This document shows positions 2,807 through 34,751 of a DNA stretch of 40,380 nucleotides, one piece after another (position 1 is the stretch's first letter; each line of letters opens with the position of its first letter). The stretch is from a virus (taxonomy: Duplodnaviria > Heunggongvirae > Uroviricota > Caudoviricetes), in IMG/VR virus record IMGVR_UViG_2744054872_000003, positions 1-40,380 of that record. One strand, written 5' to 3'. Both the position numbers and the translations under genes were made by a program. Below the pieces are notes generated by a model. The model worked only from the letters and a program-made list of their open reading frames with translations, ran no database searches and was not told the DNA's origin.

Positions 2807-3209
2807 CGTCTTTTCTCCCCGGAATTAACTCGCGTGGATTATCAGAACGGTGGTAGAGCCAGATGCCAATTCGCACTGCGACAATTGCTGATACGAATGC
2901 GCCAGCAGAGAAAACAATCCCTTTCTCGAAAGAGTCCTTAGTTATAGTAGGGATCAGACTGGCGATACCGATAAGAATTGATGCTGTCGGTTTGTAGAAG
3001 AGAAGGCCGCAAAGGAAACTGAGCATCGACAGGAGAACCCTGCGATTAATGGGATACTCAATGGCAGAGGTAACAAAAATTACCGCACCAGACAAAGCTC
3101 CCAAAGCCACCTCAGGAGGAGCACCTGCTATCACTGCAACAAGAGAACTCATACTAAGCCACTGATTTAAAGATTCACTGGTTAGCTGGACTGACATAAA
3201 AACCACCAT
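2793..3209 (-). CDS. Holin-like membrane protein (first gene of the lysis cassette)
   Basis: Multiple transmembrane segments; GGTGG RBS; promoter-like TTGAAA-N18-TATGAT upstream on the minus strand. Confidence 0.45.
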   Translation of the reverse strand: MVVFMSVQLTSESLNQWLSMSSLVAVIAGAPPEVALGALSGAVIFVTSAIEYPINRRVLLSMLSFLCGLLFYKPTASILIGIASLIPTITKDSFEKGIVFSAGAFVSAIVAVRIGIWLYHRSDNPRELIPGRKDDGNA

Positions 3210-3289
3210 TTACTGTGCATGAATACAACTTTAGTTAGTGCATCCATCATACACAACAAACCATATATGTTTCAAAACCACCACCAAAA

Positions 3290-3304
3290 TTACCCTAAAG
3301 GTAA
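3290..3304. promoter_or_regulatory. Operator-like inverted repeat TTACC-CTAAA-GGTAA upstream of the lysis promoter
   Basis: Perfect match to the recurring TTACC-N5-GGTAA motif; lies just upstream of a -35/-10 pair reading toward the holin gene. Confidence 0.5.
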
Positions 3305-3661
3305 TAAATTAATGTTATGTATTTTAAGGATGTAAAATACTTAATTTATTCGACAGGTACACATCTCTATTATTTTTGATGTAGCGGGTACCCACACTGA
3401 GCATCATATAGTTTTTTTAATTCTGACATGAATATCTTCATGTTTGATTTAGTATGTATCTCCTTATAAGAATTCATGATACAAGACGTTTGCTAACCAG
3501 ACATTTGAAAAATTCATATTGCTTTGAAATATATATTCAAAAAAAGACACCAAAATATATAAATAAATTACACCAGCATACCATAACAATATTTATCTTC
3601 ACATATATTGTATTTCCTACAGTGTTTATGTCCTGGCATTTAATACATAAAATAATTTTAT

Positions 3662-3685
3662 ACGCCCTTCCATGGGCGTTTTTTA
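3662..3685. terminator. Hairpin terminator at the 3' end of the tailspike gene
   Basis: ACGCCC-TTCCAT-GGGCGT stem with a T6 run on the plus strand and an AU-rich tract on the minus strand. Confidence 0.4.
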
Positions 3686-5941
3686 GTTCAATGCAGTCCA
3701 ATCATTACTAGTGAGACCATGAGACTTCCACCATTTACTTGTCCCTGGAAGCCATACCTCTTGACCAATAAATCGAGGTGTCACGTTACCAACAGGAGTG
3801 CTCATTCCGGCACTTGTAACAACATATCCATATTTTGCTGGGCCTGTTCCATTATTAAGGATTGTATCCTTTGTTATGCCTGTTGCCCCATTGTACCATT
3901 CCAAATCACTACCGCTAGCACCGCTAATAAATTCAGGCATAAAGTGTGAAAATGAATTATTGGCATCCACTCTTGCACCATGGTAAGCCTTATAACCGCT
4001 GGCTTGAGTATTGCTCCACCTCCCTCCTTTTACACTACCAGCAGATGAAGAGAAAAATCTTGCCGCATATCTTGCAAAACCGGCTATATTTATATCATTC
4101 AATTCATAATCAGAAAGAGACGCAATTGACATACCATCATTATTAGGAATACCTGATGCTATTTGTGGGTTTGATGCATATCCTGTTAATGTTGCTCCGT
4201 TAATATATATCCCCGTGCTTGGCCCAGTCTCTGATGTGTATATTCCAACTCCAGAACAGTTAAAAACCTGAAGATCTGTTATTCTAACATTTCTGGCACA
4301 ATTAAAGCTCAAGCCACGCTCAGCTGGTGAATAGGTATCGCGCATAGGATATCCGACATCACGCAAGCGAACTCCGTTAATGCTAATGTTGCTAGGATTC
4401 ATACCTTGTGTTACTGACTCAAAACCTTCAAATGTAATGCCATTACCAACATTGACTCCCACTACATTACTGACATGAATATCTGAGACATACCTTTTAA
4501 ATCCGATAACTCCATGGGCACAATTACGACCAACAACGTTGGTGATAATGCAATTACGTGTACCTCCTGGCACCGCTGCAGAACAATAAATTCCCAAATC
4601 CCGACAATTATCTACGAGAAGGCCGTCAATGACGGAATCTATAGCGCTTGCATACATCAGGCATGAATCAGGAGCATTAACAAGTTCAACATTCTTTAGT
4701 GTGCAACGTGCTCCACCAAAGGTAAGGATATCAGCTACAGCATAAAGCTTGTTGTTTTCTTGATTACCATCAATGCGTAAATCACGTATATGAACATCAT
4801 TAGCCCCCATGTTGTGAACAAGGTAGTAGGCCTGTGTTTTATCAACACAAATATCATCCGCAAATTTAAGCCATCCCCCAGCACCGATAAGTATTGTTTT
4901 CTCCTTGATCTGTAATCCAGTAAATATCCATGGATCTCCATCTTTATTCTTTGGAGTAATCTTTATTGCACAATAACCAGGAACAGAACCAGAATAATCA
5001 AGTGCTGCCTGTAGCGTCTGCTGATCTGTCATGCTACCAAACATAAAAGAACGCACATCAATACAGTCATCAACCTGTAATTCCAATTGTAGGCCATCAA
5101 AACGGTCAACAATAACAATACCATCTGCAGTAATACCCGTATTTGGAGTTACTGAGTACTTATTATAACTACCGGCAGAGTTTTTAACCGCCACCAGGCG
5201 ACCTTCAACGGTAGTGTTTGTTGTCAGCTCAGCCTGAGTGTCGAGCTCCATCGCAATGCCACCAATAAGTGAAGCTCCGGTAGGCTTTGCGAGTTCAATC
5301 AGCACATCTGAAGCAGAACCTGAAGGAGGTAAAACAACAATAGGGTTACCGCCGTTGTCGAAAGCTGGAATTTTATTAGCACGGGTAGCGGCATCAGGAA
5401 GTTGCGGTATCTGCTCCTGAACGCGCAACGTATTTCCTAGATTAGTACTGAGCAGTGTATCAACATAATTTTTAGTAGCAGCATCTTGAGGCTTTGAAGG
5501 ATCGCGTAAATTACGGATGTAATTGTTTAGCGCATCATAATAGTTAGCCACGAATGATGGTTTACGCAGCGCCAGGCTAAACCAACTTCTAACCTGCTGA
5601 ATCAACATCGTTAACTTATCAAACGCATCCTCATGCACCTCAGCAAAAAACTTACCCTGATTGCGCAGATCAGTTTCCTGTGTAACCGGTAGCTCTCGTG
5701 ATATAGAAATCTGATAATCGTTAGCCAACGCCTTCGACAGAATTACATTGCCTCCGTTATACCCTCCCGCACCAGTGACTGTGTAATCAGTATCAAGAAC
5801 CAGCACAGTGATATTCTCGTCAAGGTCAATCACCTGCACAACCAGATCAGATTTCTGGAATATCCTGAAGGTATAAGGGAATGTCGTTGTAACACCGTTA
5901 CCGGTGTATTCGTTGTGGTCAACTTCGGTTGAGACCGTCAT
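3683..5941 (-). CDS. Tailspike protein with T7 gp17-like N-terminal attachment domain and beta-helix-type central domain
   Basis: N-terminus YTGNGVTTTFPYTFRIFQKSDLVVQV resembles the conserved podovirus tail-fibre/tailspike N-terminal domain; central region has Asn/Gly/Val-rich repeats typical of a parallel beta-helix depolymerase. Confidence 0.75.
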   Translation of the reverse strand: MTVSTEVDHNEYTGNGVTTTFPYTFRIFQKSDLVVQVIDLDENITVLVLDTDYTVTGAGGYNGGNVILSKALANDYQISISRELPVTQETDLRNQGKFFAEVHEDAFDKLTMLIQQVRSWFSLALRKPSFVANYYDALNNYIRNLRDPSKPQDAATKNYVDTLLSTNLGNTLRVQEQIPQLPDAATRANKIPAFDNGGNPIVVLPPSGSASDVLIELAKPTGASLIGGIAMELDTQAELTTNTTVEGRLVAVKNSAGSYNKYSVTPNTGITADGIVIVDRFDGLQLELQVDDCIDVRSFMFGSMTDQQTLQAALDYSGSVPGYCAIKITPKNKDGDPWIFTGLQIKEKTILIGAGGWLKFADDICVDKTQAYYLVHNMGANDVHIRDLRIDGNQENNKLYAVADILTFGGARCTLKNVELVNAPDSCLMYASAIDSVIDGLLVDNCRDLGIYCSAAVPGGTRNCIITNVVGRNCAHGVIGFKRYVSDIHVSNVVGVNVGNGITFEGFESVTQGMNPSNISINGVRLRDVGYPMRDTYSPAERGLSFNCARNVRITDLQVFNCSGVGIYTSETGPSTGIYINGATLTGYASNPQIASGIPNNDGMSIASLSDYELNDINIAGFARYAARFFSSSAGSVKGGRWSNTQASGYKAYHGARVDANNSFSHFMPEFISGASGSDLEWYNGATGITKDTILNNGTGPAKYGYVVTSAGMSTPVGNVTPRFIGQEVWLPGTSKWWKSHGLTSNDWTALN

Positions 5942-6707: not shown

Positions 6708-7394
6708 ATGACTGCTAACGTAACCCCATCTGTTTTTCATTTTGAATCAGAAGCAACCATTCGAGCCATTGTTATTGATGGAAATCCTTGGTTTGTTGCC
6801 AAAGACGTTATTAAAGCTCTTCAACTGACAAACCCCACTATGTCAATAAAATCTCTTGATGATGATGAAAGGGCTAAATTTAACTTAGGCCGTCAAGGCG
6901 AAACCAATATTATCAACGAGTCAGGCCTCTACACACTGATCCTCCGCTGCCGCGATGCAGTAACACCAGGCACTATCCCCTACCGCTTTCGCAAATGGGT
7001 TACAGGTGAGGTACTTCCTCAGATCCGCCGCACCGGAAGTTACATTAAAAACTCGCTCCCGCAGGAAGAACGCATAAAGATGGTTGCCGACCAGGTAGCC
7101 AACGCCACGGCGTCAGCAGTGATGCAGGCAATGAAGATAGAGAACAAAACCTACAGTGCCCCACTGAAGCCCGGCTACCGTAGCCTGATTCATTCGCCGT
7201 CTGGTGTTCTCGGCCTGACGGAGAACTCACTGCTGATGAATCTGCTGAACAAGTTACAGGAAGACGGGCACGATGTATCGGGCGCGGCAGCGGAGCTGAC
7301 CACCATGTTCTGCTACATCGTCGGTGTGAGCAAATGCCTGCGTGATATCCAGACGCACGCGGAGTACATCAACGACAAAGCAGGGTTCTTCTGA
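6708..7394 (+). CDS. Antirepressor, Bro-N domain protein
   Basis: N-terminus FHFESEATIRAIVIDGNPWFVAKDV...NESGLYTLILR fits the Bro-N pattern; AAGGTGA RBS before ATG at 6708; the ORF-track extension to 6555 looks non-coding. Confidence 0.7.
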   Translation: MTANVTPSVFHFESEATIRAIVIDGNPWFVAKDVIKALQLTNPTMSIKSLDDDERAKFNLGRQGETNIINESGLYTLILRCRDAVTPGTIPYRFRKWVTGEVLPQIRRTGSYIKNSLPQEERIKMVADQVANATASAVMQAMKIENKTYSAPLKPGYRSLIHSPSGVLGLTENSLLMNLLNKLQEDGHDVSGAAAELTTMFCYIVGVSKCLRDIQTHAEYINDKAGFF

Positions 7395-7466
7395 CAAGCG
7401 GTGGCACAGGGATGTGCCTTTAAATAATTCTGTACAGATTGCAGACTGTGGGTGAATAGCGTACTA

Positions 7467-7481
7467 TTACCTTAAAGGTAA
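7467..7481. promoter_or_regulatory. Operator-like inverted repeat TTACC-TTAAA-GGTAA overlapping the RBS of the 7494 gene
   Basis: Perfect motif copy directly abutting the AAGGAGG Shine-Dalgarno. Confidence 0.5.
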
Positions 7482-7493
7482 AGGAGGCGCGAT

Positions 7494-7661
7494 ATGACAG
7501 CGTTGAAAAATCGTACTCAGCACAATGAACAAGCCAAGCAATGCTGGGATGTCATTGGAAAAGTTATGCTTGGCCGCGCAAGCAAAGAGCGCGACAAGGA
7601 TATGGTTTACCAGACAGGAACATCTTTCAGCGACTTCAAGGCGGCATTTCGCTCCAAATAG
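7494..7661 (+). CDS. Small hypothetical protein (55 aa)
   Basis: Strong AAGGAGG RBS; protein-like composition; not in the ORF track because it is under 60 aa. Confidence 0.4.
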   Translation: MTALKNRTQHNEQAKQCWDVIGKVMLGRASKERDKDMVYQTGTSFSDFKAAFRSK

Positions 7662-7681
7662 AAGCACATCAGGAGTTTTCC

Positions 7682-8122
7682 TTGAAGTTTAACATTAGAA
7701 TATCTAATAGTTTTCTACATGGGGAAAGCAACACCCCTTTCGCTGTAGACGGACCTTTCCTTACTGATGATGAAATAAAAATCATACAAAGTTTTTTAGA
7801 GGATGTTGCCAATGGAAGGGCGCTTGTTGGAAAAAACAAGCCCTCGTGGGTTGATGATAACCATGATAAAATTCCCGGCTCAGACAATTATGAGCAAGAG
7901 AATTATTGGCATTATCATTGTGGGCCAACATGGTATCCAAACACATTTAAGAATTATACCATTAACTTAAATTTCAACCCTGGCGGAAGGCATTCTAATG
8001 AATGCATTCATTATGCAAAAAATGATAATGAAATTGTCATTGTTGGATTTTCAAGAGAACACATACCTTTCCTTTCATCAGATGGAAACAACAATCCGCT
8101 TTTTAATGATGAAGAAGAATAG
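7682..8122 (+). CDS. AT-rich accessory gene of unknown function (147 aa), probable TTG start
   Basis: ORF with no in-frame ATG after 7541; AGGAG RBS 6 nt before TTG at 7682; markedly AT-rich; acidic C-terminus; ends at a strong terminator. Confidence 0.45.
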   Translation: MKFNIRISNSFLHGESNTPFAVDGPFLTDDEIKIIQSFLEDVANGRALVGKNKPSWVDDNHDKIPGSDNYEQENYWHYHCGPTWYPNTFKNYTINLNFNPGGRHSNECIHYAKNDNEIVIVGFSREHIPFLSSDGNNNPLFNDEEE

Positions 8123-8143
8123 CCCGCGCTGCGGGCTTTTTTT
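8121..8143 (+). terminator. Rho-independent terminator
   Basis: AGCCCGC-GCT-GCGGGCT hairpin followed by T6. Confidence 0.75.
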
Positions 8144-8215
8144 GTGGACGAAACAAAAGTCAGTGCTACACTCATTGACGCCACATTGAGGTGGCTTATA
8201 GATGGAAATTTCACA

Positions 8216-8377
8216 ATGAAAAAAGCATTTGCTGCACTGTTCGTTTTGTTGTCTCTGGTAGCTTCAACTCAGGCCTTTGCCGGTCGTTGTCAGCACGACA
8301 GCGACACTGCTGCTGACGGCTCACGCTGCGGTGGGCGTTCTGCGGATTCCCGCCCAGGCGGCGGTGGCATTCGTTAA
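8216..8377 (+). CDS. Small secreted Gly/Cys-containing peptide (53 aa precursor)
   Basis: Signal peptide MKKAFAALFVLLSLVASTQAFA then a 31-aa Gly/Ser/Asp-rich tail with two Cys; weak RBS. Confidence 0.3.
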   Translation: MKKAFAALFVLLSLVASTQAFAGRCQHDSDTAADGSRCGGRSADSRPGGGGIR

Positions 8378-8383
8378 AAACAA

Positions 8384-8400
8384 GGCCGCGAAAGCGGCCT
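8384..8400 (-). terminator. Intrinsic terminator after the 8409..8705 gene
   Basis: GGCCGC-GAAA-GCGGCC hairpin followed on the minus strand by TTGTTTTT. Confidence 0.55.
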
Positions 8401-8412
8401 GTGACATGTCAC
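8401..8412. repeat. 12-bp palindrome GTGACATGTCAC, copy 1
   Basis: Perfect palindrome overlapping the stop codon of the 8409..8705 gene and abutting a terminator hairpin; identical copies at 25932 and 28197. Confidence 0.6.
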
Positions 8413-8705
8413 GTCCCTTTTCTGAATGATAGCCATTCGAAAAATGATGACATTCCACCGCAGACAATAGCAAAGATGATCCCACCAAAGAAGAGAAGGC
8501 CAGCCTGCCACCACTCCCACCGCCATACATCCACAGCACCAACCATACCAACAATCGCTCCAACAAATGGAATATAGCTCACGATGAAAGCAATGGGGGC
8601 TGCAATTATCCAGTGCAATCCCCACCATGATTCAAGCCCAGCCATAATTGCTGCCAACTGAAAAAGACCAACGACGATATAAACAATGAATCCTATAGCT
8701 TGCAT
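8409..8705 (-). CDS. Small multi-pass membrane protein
   Basis: 98 aa, three or four hydrophobic helices, Trp-rich loops; downstream of the virion gene block. Confidence 0.45.
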   Translation of the reverse strand: MQAIGFIVYIVVGLFQLAAIMAGLESWWGLHWIIAAPIAFIVSYIPFVGAIVGMVGAVDVWRWEWWQAGLLFFGGIIFAIVCGGMSSFFEWLSFRKGT

Positions 8706-8900
8706 GTAGTCACCTATTTACCCAGTAAAAATCAGAGGCCTCCCCTCAATAAGGCTTGCAACAAGAACTATTCCCTGCACAACAAAGATAAACCAGCAAA
8801 TAGCTTGAGTCTGAGGGTTAAGAAAATATTTGTAGCGGTCAATAAATAACAACCCACCAGAAATTATCACACTCAAAACAATTAAAAACACAACACTTCC

Positions 8901-24954: not shown

Positions 24955-24991
24955 TTGACATTTAACGCACTAATTATTACCTTTCAGGTAA
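24955..24991 (+). promoter_or_regulatory. Candidate promoter (TTGACA-N17-TACCTT) with overlapping operator TTACC-TTTCA-GGTAA at 24977..24991
   Basis: Consensus -35; -10 lies inside the operator half-site; reads toward the tRNA gene. Confidence 0.45.
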
Positions 24992-34166: not shown

Positions 34167-34751
34167 ATGAAAAGTATCCAGGACGTCCGCAGGCAAAATC
34201 TCAACGACTTGATCGACCGTGAATTCAATGGTGTTCAGACGCGGATGGCAGAAAAACTTGGAACTCAGGCAAATCTGGTAAACCGCTGGGCTCTTGGCAA
34301 GAAGGTTATCGGCGACCAGGTTGCGCGAAAAATTGAAGCTGCCGCCAATAAACCCCGTAACTGGCTTGATATCGATCGCTCGCTTTCTCAGGAAGGTTTT
34401 CAGCCTGTCGGCCCAAGCGACATTGGTCAGCTGGCGGCTCACAACCTGGAACGCTGGATGAGCGAAAGCCGCGACCTTTCAACACAGGGAAAACTTCACC
34501 GCGCATCCGGCGTCGCCCAGGTGACAATCAGCCGCCTGTTAAACAATGAGGTCAGCGTTTCCATTTCCACCCTGGAGAATGTTGCATCTGCATTCGGGCG
34601 TCACGGATATGAACTACTGATTCATCCGCATGACCCTGCAACTATCAACTATGACCGCTCGCGCTACGCATTGTTACCTGAAACAGAGAAGGCAAAGATC
34701 GAAAGTTACATTGAATTTGTCATCAACCAGAACGAAAAAAGCAAACAATAA
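34167..34751 (+). CDS. Prophage repressor (cI-like) with HTH domains and no S24 peptidase domain
   Basis: N-terminal XRE-type HTH (MAEKLGTQANLVNRWALGKKVIGDQVARKIE) and a second HTH-like segment; no Ala-Gly/Ser/Lys autocleavage module; sits upstream of the early-left promoter in cI-like orientation. Confidence 0.65.
   Translation: MKSIQDVRRQNLNDLIDREFNGVQTRMAEKLGTQANLVNRWALGKKVIGDQVARKIEAAANKPRNWLDIDRSLSQEGFQPVGPSDIGQLAAHNLERWMSESRDLSTQGKLHRASGVAQVTISRLLNNEVSVSISTLENVASAFGRHGYELLIHPHDPATINYDRSRYALLPETEKAKIESYIEFVINQNEKSKQ

Follow-up and report, generated by a model that had tools for sequence, protein, structure and literature searches.

Among described toxin-antitoxin (TA) systems, prophage-borne pairs of the RelE superfamily are a known kind, and the toxin YafO cleaves mRNA while bound to the ribosome (PMC7781912). 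Accessory genes of temperate phages have been discussed under the concept of hotspots (PMC9122126). Here, we describe a two-gene cassette in a 40,380-nucleotide (nt) stretch of viral DNA (IMG/VR record IMGVR_UViG_2744054872_000003, positions 1 to 40,380; here called the window), which consists of open reading frames (ORFs) for proteins of 55 and 147 amino acids (aa), ORF55 and ORF147. With a probability of roughly 0.6, we interpret the cassette (positions 7467-8144) as a RelE/YafO-like type II TA-like module carried as swappable prophage cargo. The toxin family, the partner domain, the common operator, and the slot that the cassette occupies are undescribed in the libraries and literature that we searched.

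Judged from its sequence, the window is a Uetakevirus (epsilon15/phiV10-like) prophage of Escherichia coli, and the region around the cassette shares 99.6% identity with Escherichia phage phiv142-3 and 97.7% with phage HEMP4. An earlier annotation made from the letters of the window (here called the original prediction) had placed an AT-rich accessory island between the virion genes and the tailspike gene, on the strand opposite to both. Strands and coordinates agree with that description, in that the plus-strand block is flanked by the minus-strand tailspike gene (3683-5941) and by minus-strand virion/injection genes (from 8901). The composition agrees as well: the G+C content of ORF147 is 35.6%, compared with 48.9% for the window, and ORF147 falls within the lowest 1.2% of 441-nt segments.

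Two genes conserved as proteins

ORF55 (7494-7661, plus strand; PHROG 8607; RefSeq WP_000125783, "hypothetical") runs from an ATG to a TAG codon behind the Shine-Dalgarno (SD) sequence AGGAGG (7482-7487), so that the 55-aa ORF behind a strong ribosome-binding site (RBS) had been read correctly; it is conserved and is the candidate antitoxin or partner. After a gap of 20 nt, it is followed by ORF147 (7682-8122, plus strand; PHROG 5954; RefSeq WP_000671198, "hypothetical"), the candidate mRNA-endonuclease toxin, which ends in TAG and starts at a TTG codon (7682-7684) with an AGGAG SD sequence (7671-7675) and a 6-nt spacer. Nucleotide differences from orthologues are concentrated at third codon positions in both ORF147 (19/13/61, 44/27/91, and 44/27/84 at the three codon positions) and ORF55 (3/3/16, 14/12/37, and 22/16/37), which indicates that both evolve as proteins and are real genes.

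The TTG start proposed for ORF147 is well supported by comparative sequence evidence. The first residue is the same in orthologues, whose start codon is TTG (Enterobacter, Serratia, and Pectobacterium), GTG (Erwinia), or ATG (Pasteurellaceae and Kingella); the PHROG 5954 profile aligns to ORF147 from residue 1; RefSeq contains the same 147-aa coding sequence (CDS); and the stored gene calls of most other E. coli contigs are also 147 aa. The accompanying claim that the gene lacks an in-frame ATG holds for the 147-aa protein, which has no internal Met, and fails upstream of it, where an in-frame ATG is present at position 7541. That codon would open a 193-aa ORF overlapping ORF55 in another frame, a reading that we reject, as the conserved N termini of the homologues and the out-of-frame overlap itself argue against it.

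Predicted fold and conserved residues of ORF147

ORF147 has no match in Pfam, NCBIfam, or PADLOC (E ≤ 1), and PHROG 5954 is annotated as "unknown function." The statement in the original prediction that the 147-aa product belongs to no recognizable family thus stands for the sequence libraries and gives way only at the level of fold. The profile searches that it had proposed for both proteins led only to PHROGs of "unknown function," and the structural model of ORF147 proved to be RelE/ParE-like. The high-confidence AlphaFold2 model (predicted local distance difference test score of 91.6, with all five models between 87 and 92) is a compact alpha/beta fold with an N-terminal strand, two helices, and an antiparallel sheet, which is the arrangement that defines the RelE/ParE fold. 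Its elements follow one another as a strand, two helices, a strand, a short inserted helix, a strand carrying an H-x-H motif, a long insertion, two strands, and a conserved His. On the basis of this model, the RelE/ParE toxin fold, i.e., the fold of mRNA-interferase toxins, is the best-supported placement of ORF147. A profile search with the ORF147 family against PDB sequences returned no toxin and nothing relevant, and a Foldseek search of the model against the BFVD viral models returned no significant match.

The family is small: 5.8 billion proteins yielded 34 clusters, and 1.84 billion yielded 121 representatives (E ≤ 1e-3). Its named members belong to Enterobacterales and, in one case, Pasteurellaceae, and all are labelled "hypothetical" or "uncharacterized" in their sources. 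ORF147 and its homologues appear from their sequences to be single-domain proteins of ~145 aa. In an alignment of 93 sequences reaching down to ~22% identity, H77, H79, and H127 are invariant and G50, N52, K53, S55, Y78, H110, Y111, and F130 are near-invariant. These residues are grouped in the motifs GKNKPSW, WHYHCG, IHY, and S..H.PF, and in the model H77, H79, H127, N52, K53, Y78, H110, and Y111 lie on strands 2 to 4 and just past strand 5. We propose a candidate active site that combines the conserved Lys/Asn-Lys of GKNKPSW (strand 2), the His-x-His of WHYHCG (strand 3), the His-Tyr of strand 4, and His127/Phe130. We take the catalytic residues of RelE-type toxins to lie on strands 2 and 3 and near the C terminus, where ORF147 has conserved basic, His, and Tyr residues; the two sets are matched by position along the fold, not by superposition.

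ORF55-like partners upstream of ORF147 homologues

Pairing was assessed at 18 genome loci confirmed to encode ORF147 relatives, from Erwinia, at least 10 Pasteurellaceae, Aeromonas, Kingella, and Neisseria. An upstream co-directional ORF ends 1 to 8 nt before the toxin start in 11 of them and overlaps it by 1 to 4 nt in two; at four others, the upstream ORF stops 20 to 31 nt short of the toxin gene or extends 35 nt into it. A tightly spaced upstream co-directional ORF is also present in Klebsiella, Serratia, Pectobacterium, and Enterobacter prophages. The conservation of the gene pair, which the original prediction had suggested examining in related prophages, therefore extends far beyond them, and the genes are adjacent, co-directional, tightly spaced, and conserved together in the manner of a type II TA pair.

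ORF55 itself has 12 homologues, several of which are encoded next to an ORF147 homologue, and has no match in Pfam, NCBIfam, PADLOC, or PDB; the partner domain likewise matches neither Pfam nor PDB. The C-terminal motif of ~35 aa of ORF55 recurs in the gene directly 5' of the ORF147 homologue at most of ~25 loci from five bacterial families, and, with one or two exceptions among the loci, it stands at the C terminus of the upstream ORF. The motif corresponds to residues ~22 to 52 of ORF55 and is held in common with the upstream genes of Erwinia, Haemophilus, Klebsiella, and other loci. The N-terminal part of the partners is variable (0 to ~150 residues), and the last ~35 to 45 residues align without large gaps to residues ~10 to 55 of ORF55 with the pattern of an aromatic or W-D element, V/I-L-x-R, Y/F, and S-F-D-D-F-K-x-A. 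An hmmsearch against ORFs translated from the toxin-upstream regions recovered the Erwinia (E value of 1e-11) and Haemophilus (E value of ~1e-3) partners, and the fit of the Klebsiella 102-aa and Serratia 57-aa partners to the motif was judged by eye.

Pairwise identities of the partners and of the toxins are correlated (Mantel r = 0.72, p = 5e-4). Two loci, L008 and L019, combine an intact partner with a fragmented toxin ORF. The sharing of the motif, the spacing, the correlated identities, and the decay of the toxin gene only are together what characterizes antitoxin-toxin pairs whose antitoxin holds the toxin by its C terminus, and we infer that the C terminus of ORF55 binds ORF147.

A phage-wide operator over the putative cassette promoter

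A putative sigma-70 promoter (7439-7467, plus strand), read from the sequence, precedes ORF55 and is likely the cassette promoter. It consists of a -35 element TTGCAG (7439-7444), a 17-nt spacer, and a -10 element TACTAT (7462-7467); it is weak, agreeing with the consensus at 7 of 12 positions, and was not listed by a generic promoter scan. The palindrome TTACCTTAAAGGTAA (TTACC-N5-GGTAA; 7467-7481) covers the -10 element and the +1 position and abuts the RBS. The original prediction had described an operator over a strong RBS, and the palindrome does lie there. It is not private to the cassette, a reading ruled out by the 14 copies of TTACC-N5-GGTAA in the window (11 of them perfect), compared with 0.64 expected; 14 copies were reached in 0 of 100 shuffled sequences.

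The copies (15 nt each) begin at positions 3290, 6046, 6426, 7467, 24977, 28086, 28104, 31704, 31766, 33712, 34049, 34097, 34809, and 34871. Most are intergenic, i.e., between listed ORFs, and several directly follow a -10-like hexamer. The layout at the cassette, where the -10-like hexamer ends on the first T of the palindrome, is repeated at other operator sites, including the TTGACA promoters at 24977 and 34871. Pairs of palindromes flank a gene for a 194-aa Cro/C1-type helix-turn-helix (HTH) protein (34167-34751), which is probably the prophage repressor, and further copies lie in the region of the replication genes and 5' of both the antirepressor gene and the lysis block. The same palindrome also stands 5' of an unrelated YafO cassette in phage TL-2011b. 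Its spread over the phage and its presence before this unrelated cassette mark the palindrome as a regulatory site of the whole phage, not of the cassette alone; the 14 copies look like the operators of a regulator that acts globally on the prophage.

A single perfect palindrome is found 5' of the module in the examined stretches of Klebsiella, Enterobacter, Serratia, and Pectobacterium prophages. It covers the module promoter in two Klebsiella lambdoid prophages (9391-9405 in L046 and L047) and in an Enterobacter prophage (4782-4796 in L036), and the cI/cro region of both Klebsiella lambdoid prophages contains no copy. From these single, module-associated copies in Klebsiella and Enterobacter prophages, it seems that the operator travels with the module. 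The MqsA box of the host is AACCT-N3-AGGTT (PMC4894380), and the palindrome resembles it at four of five positions per half-site, a likeness that serves as a lead only. Literature searches on the epsilon15/phiV10 operator and on the protein accessions led to a single paper, the phiv142-3 study considered below.

The cassette is closed by an intrinsic terminator (8121-8144, plus strand), AGCCCGCGCTGCGGGCT followed by TTTTTTGTGG, with a stem-loop at 8121-8137 (7 pairs, 6 of them G-C) and a T-run; the strong terminator reported after the 147-aa ORF is thus present. Positions 8082-8143 (plus strand) give a sub-threshold match to the Rfam model of AgvB, an anti-GcvB prophage small RNA (21.2 bits against a gathering cutoff of 56; E value of 0.46), which spans the 3' end of ORF147 and the terminator and is probably due to chance.

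A polymorphic cargo slot and a mobile module

Alignment of the window with TL-2011b revealed near-identical flanks around an unrelated interior. The common left flank extends through the promoter and the palindrome, and identity on the right restarts at GAATAGCCCGC, the final bases of ORF147, together with the terminator. In the same slot, TL-2011b carries a 59-aa ORF (gp45) overlapping a 181-aa YafO-family protein (gp44), which passes the Pfam YafO_toxin model (PF13957) with 26.3 bits against a cutoff of 25. The slot lies between a gene for a Bro-N antirepressor (plus strand, ending at 7394), which is the second gene of the block and 5' of ORF55, and a conserved gene for a 53-aa peptide.

At least five different fillings of the slot occur among E. 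coli prophages. In addition to the two described above, they include a single 210-aa protein (WP_001260052; 1854-2486 in L039 and L042) and a pair of 69 and 251 aa (1422-2497 in L041), neither with a Pfam or PADLOC match, and a second YafO-family pair of 108 and 170 aa (1672-2497 in L040). Apart from the sub-threshold YafO_toxin match of the 170-aa protein (E value of 9.5e-4), the other sampled fillings received no assignment from Pfam or PADLOC. The alternative fillings thus comprise at least three RelE/YafO-type pairs as well as genes without a family assignment. Of 5426 complete E. coli genomes, 498 contain the right flank with the 53-aa peptide gene, 77 (~1.4%) the ORF55-ORF147 cassette, and 61 the TL-2011b YafO cassette. 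The ORF55-ORF147 cassette is always chromosomal in E. coli and is annotated as "hypothetical protein" in 12 of the 12 rows listed.

Outside Uetakevirus, Klebsiella lambdoid prophages carry the module in their nin region, preceded there by a third gene; in an Enterobacter prophage, it adjoins DinI and tail-fibre genes, and in P2-like prophages, it lies beside gpV. It is also found beside a relaxase gene, and the two genes stand alone as an island at two chromosomal positions, one between accA and mtnA and the other between nuoK and nuoL. Such a distribution is that of a selfish, mobile module. The suggestion in the original prediction of horizontally acquired cargo is borne out by the exchange of a two-gene block between conserved flanks, by the at least five fillings, and by the AT-rich composition. 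Its proposal that this cargo serves in defence, anti-defence, immunity, or superinfection exclusion did not fare as well: a role in defence or exclusion drew no support from PADLOC-DB v2, which has no match for ORF55, ORF147, the 53-aa ORF, their neighbours, or the alternative slot fillings, and the predicted RelE/ParE fold of ORF147 narrows the functional candidates to a TA-type module.

The 53-aa ORF (8216-8377, plus strand; WP_000708858) matches PHROG 14503, "membrane associated protein" (E value of 2e-40). As had been recognized earlier, it is a conserved gene for a signal-peptide precursor, with a typical predicted Sec signal peptide (MKKAFAALFVLLSLVASTQAFA/G) and a predicted mature, secreted peptide of ~31 aa that is rich in Gly, Arg, Asp, and Ser and contains two Cys. 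It had been counted as part of one self-contained unit with ORF55 and ORF147, which is contradicted by its position beyond the terminator, within the conserved right flank, and by the genome counts (498 for the flank versus 77 for the cassette). The gene is retained whatever fills the slot, and the interval from the terminator to the start of the gene is free of operator copies. It is a separate, widespread moron and belongs to another evolutionary and transcriptional unit than the cassette.

The published orf10 of phiv142-3 lies inside ORF147

The GenBank record of phiv142-3 (MN187550) annotates a 52-aa Orf10 (QGF19616) and lacks the 147-aa CDS. This orf10 corresponds to positions 7812-7970 (plus strand) of the window and is read in the wrong frame inside ORF147, its frame being ruled out by stop codons in all orthologues and by the codon-position bias in favour of the ORF147 frame. 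The lambda-Red arms of the published knockout map to 7752-7811 and 7971-8030; therefore, the deletion comprises 7812-7970 and removes codons ~44 to 97 of ORF147, including GKNKPSW and WHYHCG. From these coordinates and the wrong frame, it follows that the published phenotypes belong to a truncated RelE-fold gene (as predicted by the model) with its partner intact.

In that study (2020), orf10 was the second most serum-induced prophage gene (log2 of 4.12, or ~17-fold, by quantitative reverse-transcription PCR and the transcript table), and the antirepressor, replication, recET, and other prophage genes were induced in serum along with the orf10 region (PMC7724020). We infer that this co-induction fits derepression of the operator regulon. 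Deletion of orf10 slowed growth in chicken serum, reduced serum survival to ~60%, lowered kps (capsule) transcripts ~2-fold, and decreased the loads in blood and heart of chickens, and the mutant grew normally in lysogeny broth (LB) with viable cells (PMC7724020). The description of the complementing fragment is limited to "coding sequence and putative promoter" of this 52-aa ORF (PMC7724020). Normal growth in LB after deletion of the core of a toxin is compatible with the loss of that toxin.

Proposed function and alternative explanations

Under the TA interpretation, ORF147 would most likely be a ribosome-associated mRNA endoribonuclease of YafO-like architecture, with RNase activity and toxicity as its expected properties. 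ORF55, which would be translated first from its strong RBS, would act as the neutralizing partner and bind the toxin through its conserved C-terminal ~35 residues, and the conserved TTG/GTG start of the toxin may keep toxin output below antitoxin output. The pair would be transcribed from the putative promoter that the TTACC-N5-GGTAA operator overlaps. As the operator recurs at 14 promoter-proximal sites of the prophage, control is probably exerted by a phage-wide regulator, not by the antitoxin, and transcription would presumably rise on derepression of the prophage. Candidate roles for such a module include prophage addiction, abortive-infection defence, modulation of stress responses or virulence, and a phage early function. 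A bolder form of this proposal, which we consider unlikely but plausible, holds that the pair is a new TA family of the RelE superfamily with a new antitoxin fold, not regulated by its antitoxin but wired to a prophage or host repressor regulon through the TTACC-N5-GGTAA operator, which moves with the module from one phage type to another. The pair would then be produced only on derepression of the prophage, as in serum, and a derepression-triggered mRNA interferase that reshapes host expression would be the basis of the orf10 serum-resistance and virulence phenotype.

Several observations weigh against a TA module. No sequence profile of any RelE-clan family in Pfam, NCBIfam, or PADLOC matches ORF147, and none of its 45 distant relatives matches a RelE-type or YafO model of Pfam at an E value of 0.01. 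An hhalign comparison of the 93-sequence ORF147 family with the gp44/YafO-like family gave an E value of only 0.19, with a colinear alignment of the motifs chosen, and a comparison with the second YafO-family occupant of the slot gave 0.42; the fold assignment comes from a predicted structure with a moderate Z score. No DNA-binding family is matched by ORF55 or its relatives, and the operator recurs outside the cassette, so that classical autoregulation by the antitoxin is unsupported. The partners from Pasteurellaceae and Neisseriaceae (L004-L019), as delimited by their predicted starts, are 160 to 215 aa long and combine the ORF55-like motif at the end with a conserved hydrophobic, signal-peptide-like start, which fits poorly with a cytoplasmic antitoxin. 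On one short metagenomic contig, a 1-nt deletion shifts the frame of ORF55 and leaves ORF147 intact, which may be a sequencing error; on another, both genes are full of homopolymer indels, and both contigs come from single sequencing runs. Finally, the knockout phenotype, with less serum resistance and ~2-fold lower capsule transcripts, is not that of a classical TA system.

That phenotype is the starting point for reading the locus as a lysogenic-conversion gene, in which a nontoxic RelE-fold ORF147 tunes K1 capsule and serum resistance and ORF55 is its regulator or chaperone. The only wet-laboratory data, namely, the reduced serum growth and survival, kps transcripts, and blood and heart loads of the orf10 deletion with normal growth in LB, speak for this idea, as does the ~17-fold induction of the transcript in serum. 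The published effects are small, however, and the ill-defined complementing fragment leaves the link between genotype and phenotype weak. Moreover, a His/Lys/Tyr set that stays invariant on a RelE scaffold suggests that a catalytic activity is conserved, and the tight pairing, the distribution like that of a selfish element, and the decay of only the toxin gene at two loci are hallmarks of TA systems. As an mRNA interferase could produce the same changes in expression, the virulence-modulator explanation overlaps in part with the TA interpretation, and taken by itself it appears improbable. The induction data can also be turned toward the phage: the pair may be switched on with the early genes once the repressor is lifted and serve the lytic programme or counter-defence, not the resting lysogen, for instance by a timed block of host translation or by interfering with phages that co-infect the cell. 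Its operator is the same as that of 13 other sites, including those at the antirepressor gene, the replication genes, the lysis block, and the pairs flanking the repressor-like 194-aa HTH (Cro/C1-type) gene, and its transcript rises in serum with those of antirepressor, replication, and recombination genes. Against such an early function, the slot is dispensable and polymorphic, the cassette is absent from most related prophages, and the module also exists outside phages, in two-gene chromosomal islands and beside a relaxase gene. The Klebsiella lambdoid prophages, in which the operator is found at the module and not at cI/cro, further argue that control by the resident repressor is not general, and we judge a dedicated early function to be hardly probable.

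An exported toxin-immunity pair, similar to bacteriocins or contact-dependent inhibition systems, would likewise combine an RNase, in this case a delivered one, with a protective protein. This can be given very little weight, as proteins of the ORF147 family are single-domain (~145 aa) and have no signal peptide, delivery domain, or receptor-binding domain, no secretion or lysis genes adjoin the pair, and the gene order, with the immunity-like gene first, is that of TA operons. The TA interpretation remains our preferred reading of the pair.

Other features around the block

The plus-strand block opens with an ORF of 85 to 91 aa, which precedes the antirepressor gene. At positions 4825-5109, some related E. 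coli prophages (L023, L025, and L029) encode a 94-aa protein with an antitoxin-like TacA1 domain; the gene lies 5' of the Bro-N antirepressor gene, which it overlaps, and no adjacent TacT-like toxin gene was called. On the other side, two minus-strand genes for small hydrophobic proteins converge on the island: a 98-aa protein (8409-8705; PHROG 3075) with a weak holin-like Pfam match (E value of 0.027) and a 57-aa protein (8718-8891). A hairpin at 8383-8400 provides the minus-strand terminator for both. The most AT-rich stretch of the window (3121-3760; G+C content of 27 to 31%) comprises the start of the lysis block and a gap of ~470 nt before the 3' end of the tailspike gene, in which there is no ORF of ≥90 aa. 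The operator copy at 3290 lies within this AT-rich stretch.

Significance and comparison with known systems

These results provide a structural and functional hypothesis for a pair labelled "hypothetical" in RefSeq and GenBank and "unknown function" in PHROGs, with relatives in Enterobacterales, Pasteurellaceae, Aeromonas, and Neisseriaceae. They also correct the literature, in that orf10 of phiv142-3 from avian pathogenic E. coli is a wrong-frame call, and the serum-resistance and colonization phenotypes attached to it need a new interpretation. The polymorphic slot of epsilon15-like prophages represents a compact place to search for new defence or addiction modules. If confirmed, the pair would widen the sequence space of RelE-type toxins and add a new antitoxin domain.

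The closest relatives in organization are YafN-YafO and other PF13957 pairs, including gp45-gp44 of TL-2011b, in which a small gene likewise precedes a toxin of ~130 to 180 aa; the YafO-family pair found in TL-2011b and 61 E. coli genomes occupies the identical slot between the same flanks. In its predicted model, ORF147 resembles the YafO family in the order of its secondary structure elements, including the short helix before the H-x-H strand and the long insertion before the last two strands. The motifs G-K, H-x-H, and TS..h-h-h-Y also run in the same order in both, as does a His that follows the final strand. In contrast, gp44 has extra C-terminal helices that ORF147 lacks, and ORF55 has no BLAST or profile link to gp45 and no Pfam family; YafN is a Phd/YefM-type antitoxin. 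Neither ORF147 nor its 45 relatives match the Pfam YafO_toxin model, and a BLASTP comparison of ORF147 with gp44 was not significant. As the profile comparison is not significant either, we describe ORF147 as YafO-like in architecture and do not file it in PF13957.

The antitoxin gene also comes first in RelBE, YefM-YoeB, and DinJ-YafQ. Unlike the toxins of these systems, ORF147 is ~55 residues longer, has two insertions, and lacks Pfam-level similarity to them; ORF55 contains no ribbon-helix-helix, Phd, or HTH domain, and with its phage-wide operator the operon is probably not autoregulated. The PaaR2-PaaA2-ParE2 systems of E. coli O157 prophages differ further, in that ParE2 acts on gyrase, whereas the His-rich conserved set of ORF147 resembles that of an RNase; the sequences show no similarity, and in the window the cassette has no dedicated regulator gene next to it.

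As a site, the slot differs from known phage cargo hotspots in that no sampled filling matches a known defence model. It is comparable to the P2/P4 hotspots, the lambdoid nin region, and the P22 immI/sie loci in its fixed position, its conserved flanks, and its alternative accessory genes (at least five fillings here), and homologues of the ORF147 module also reside in a lambdoid nin region and beside gpV of P2-like prophages.

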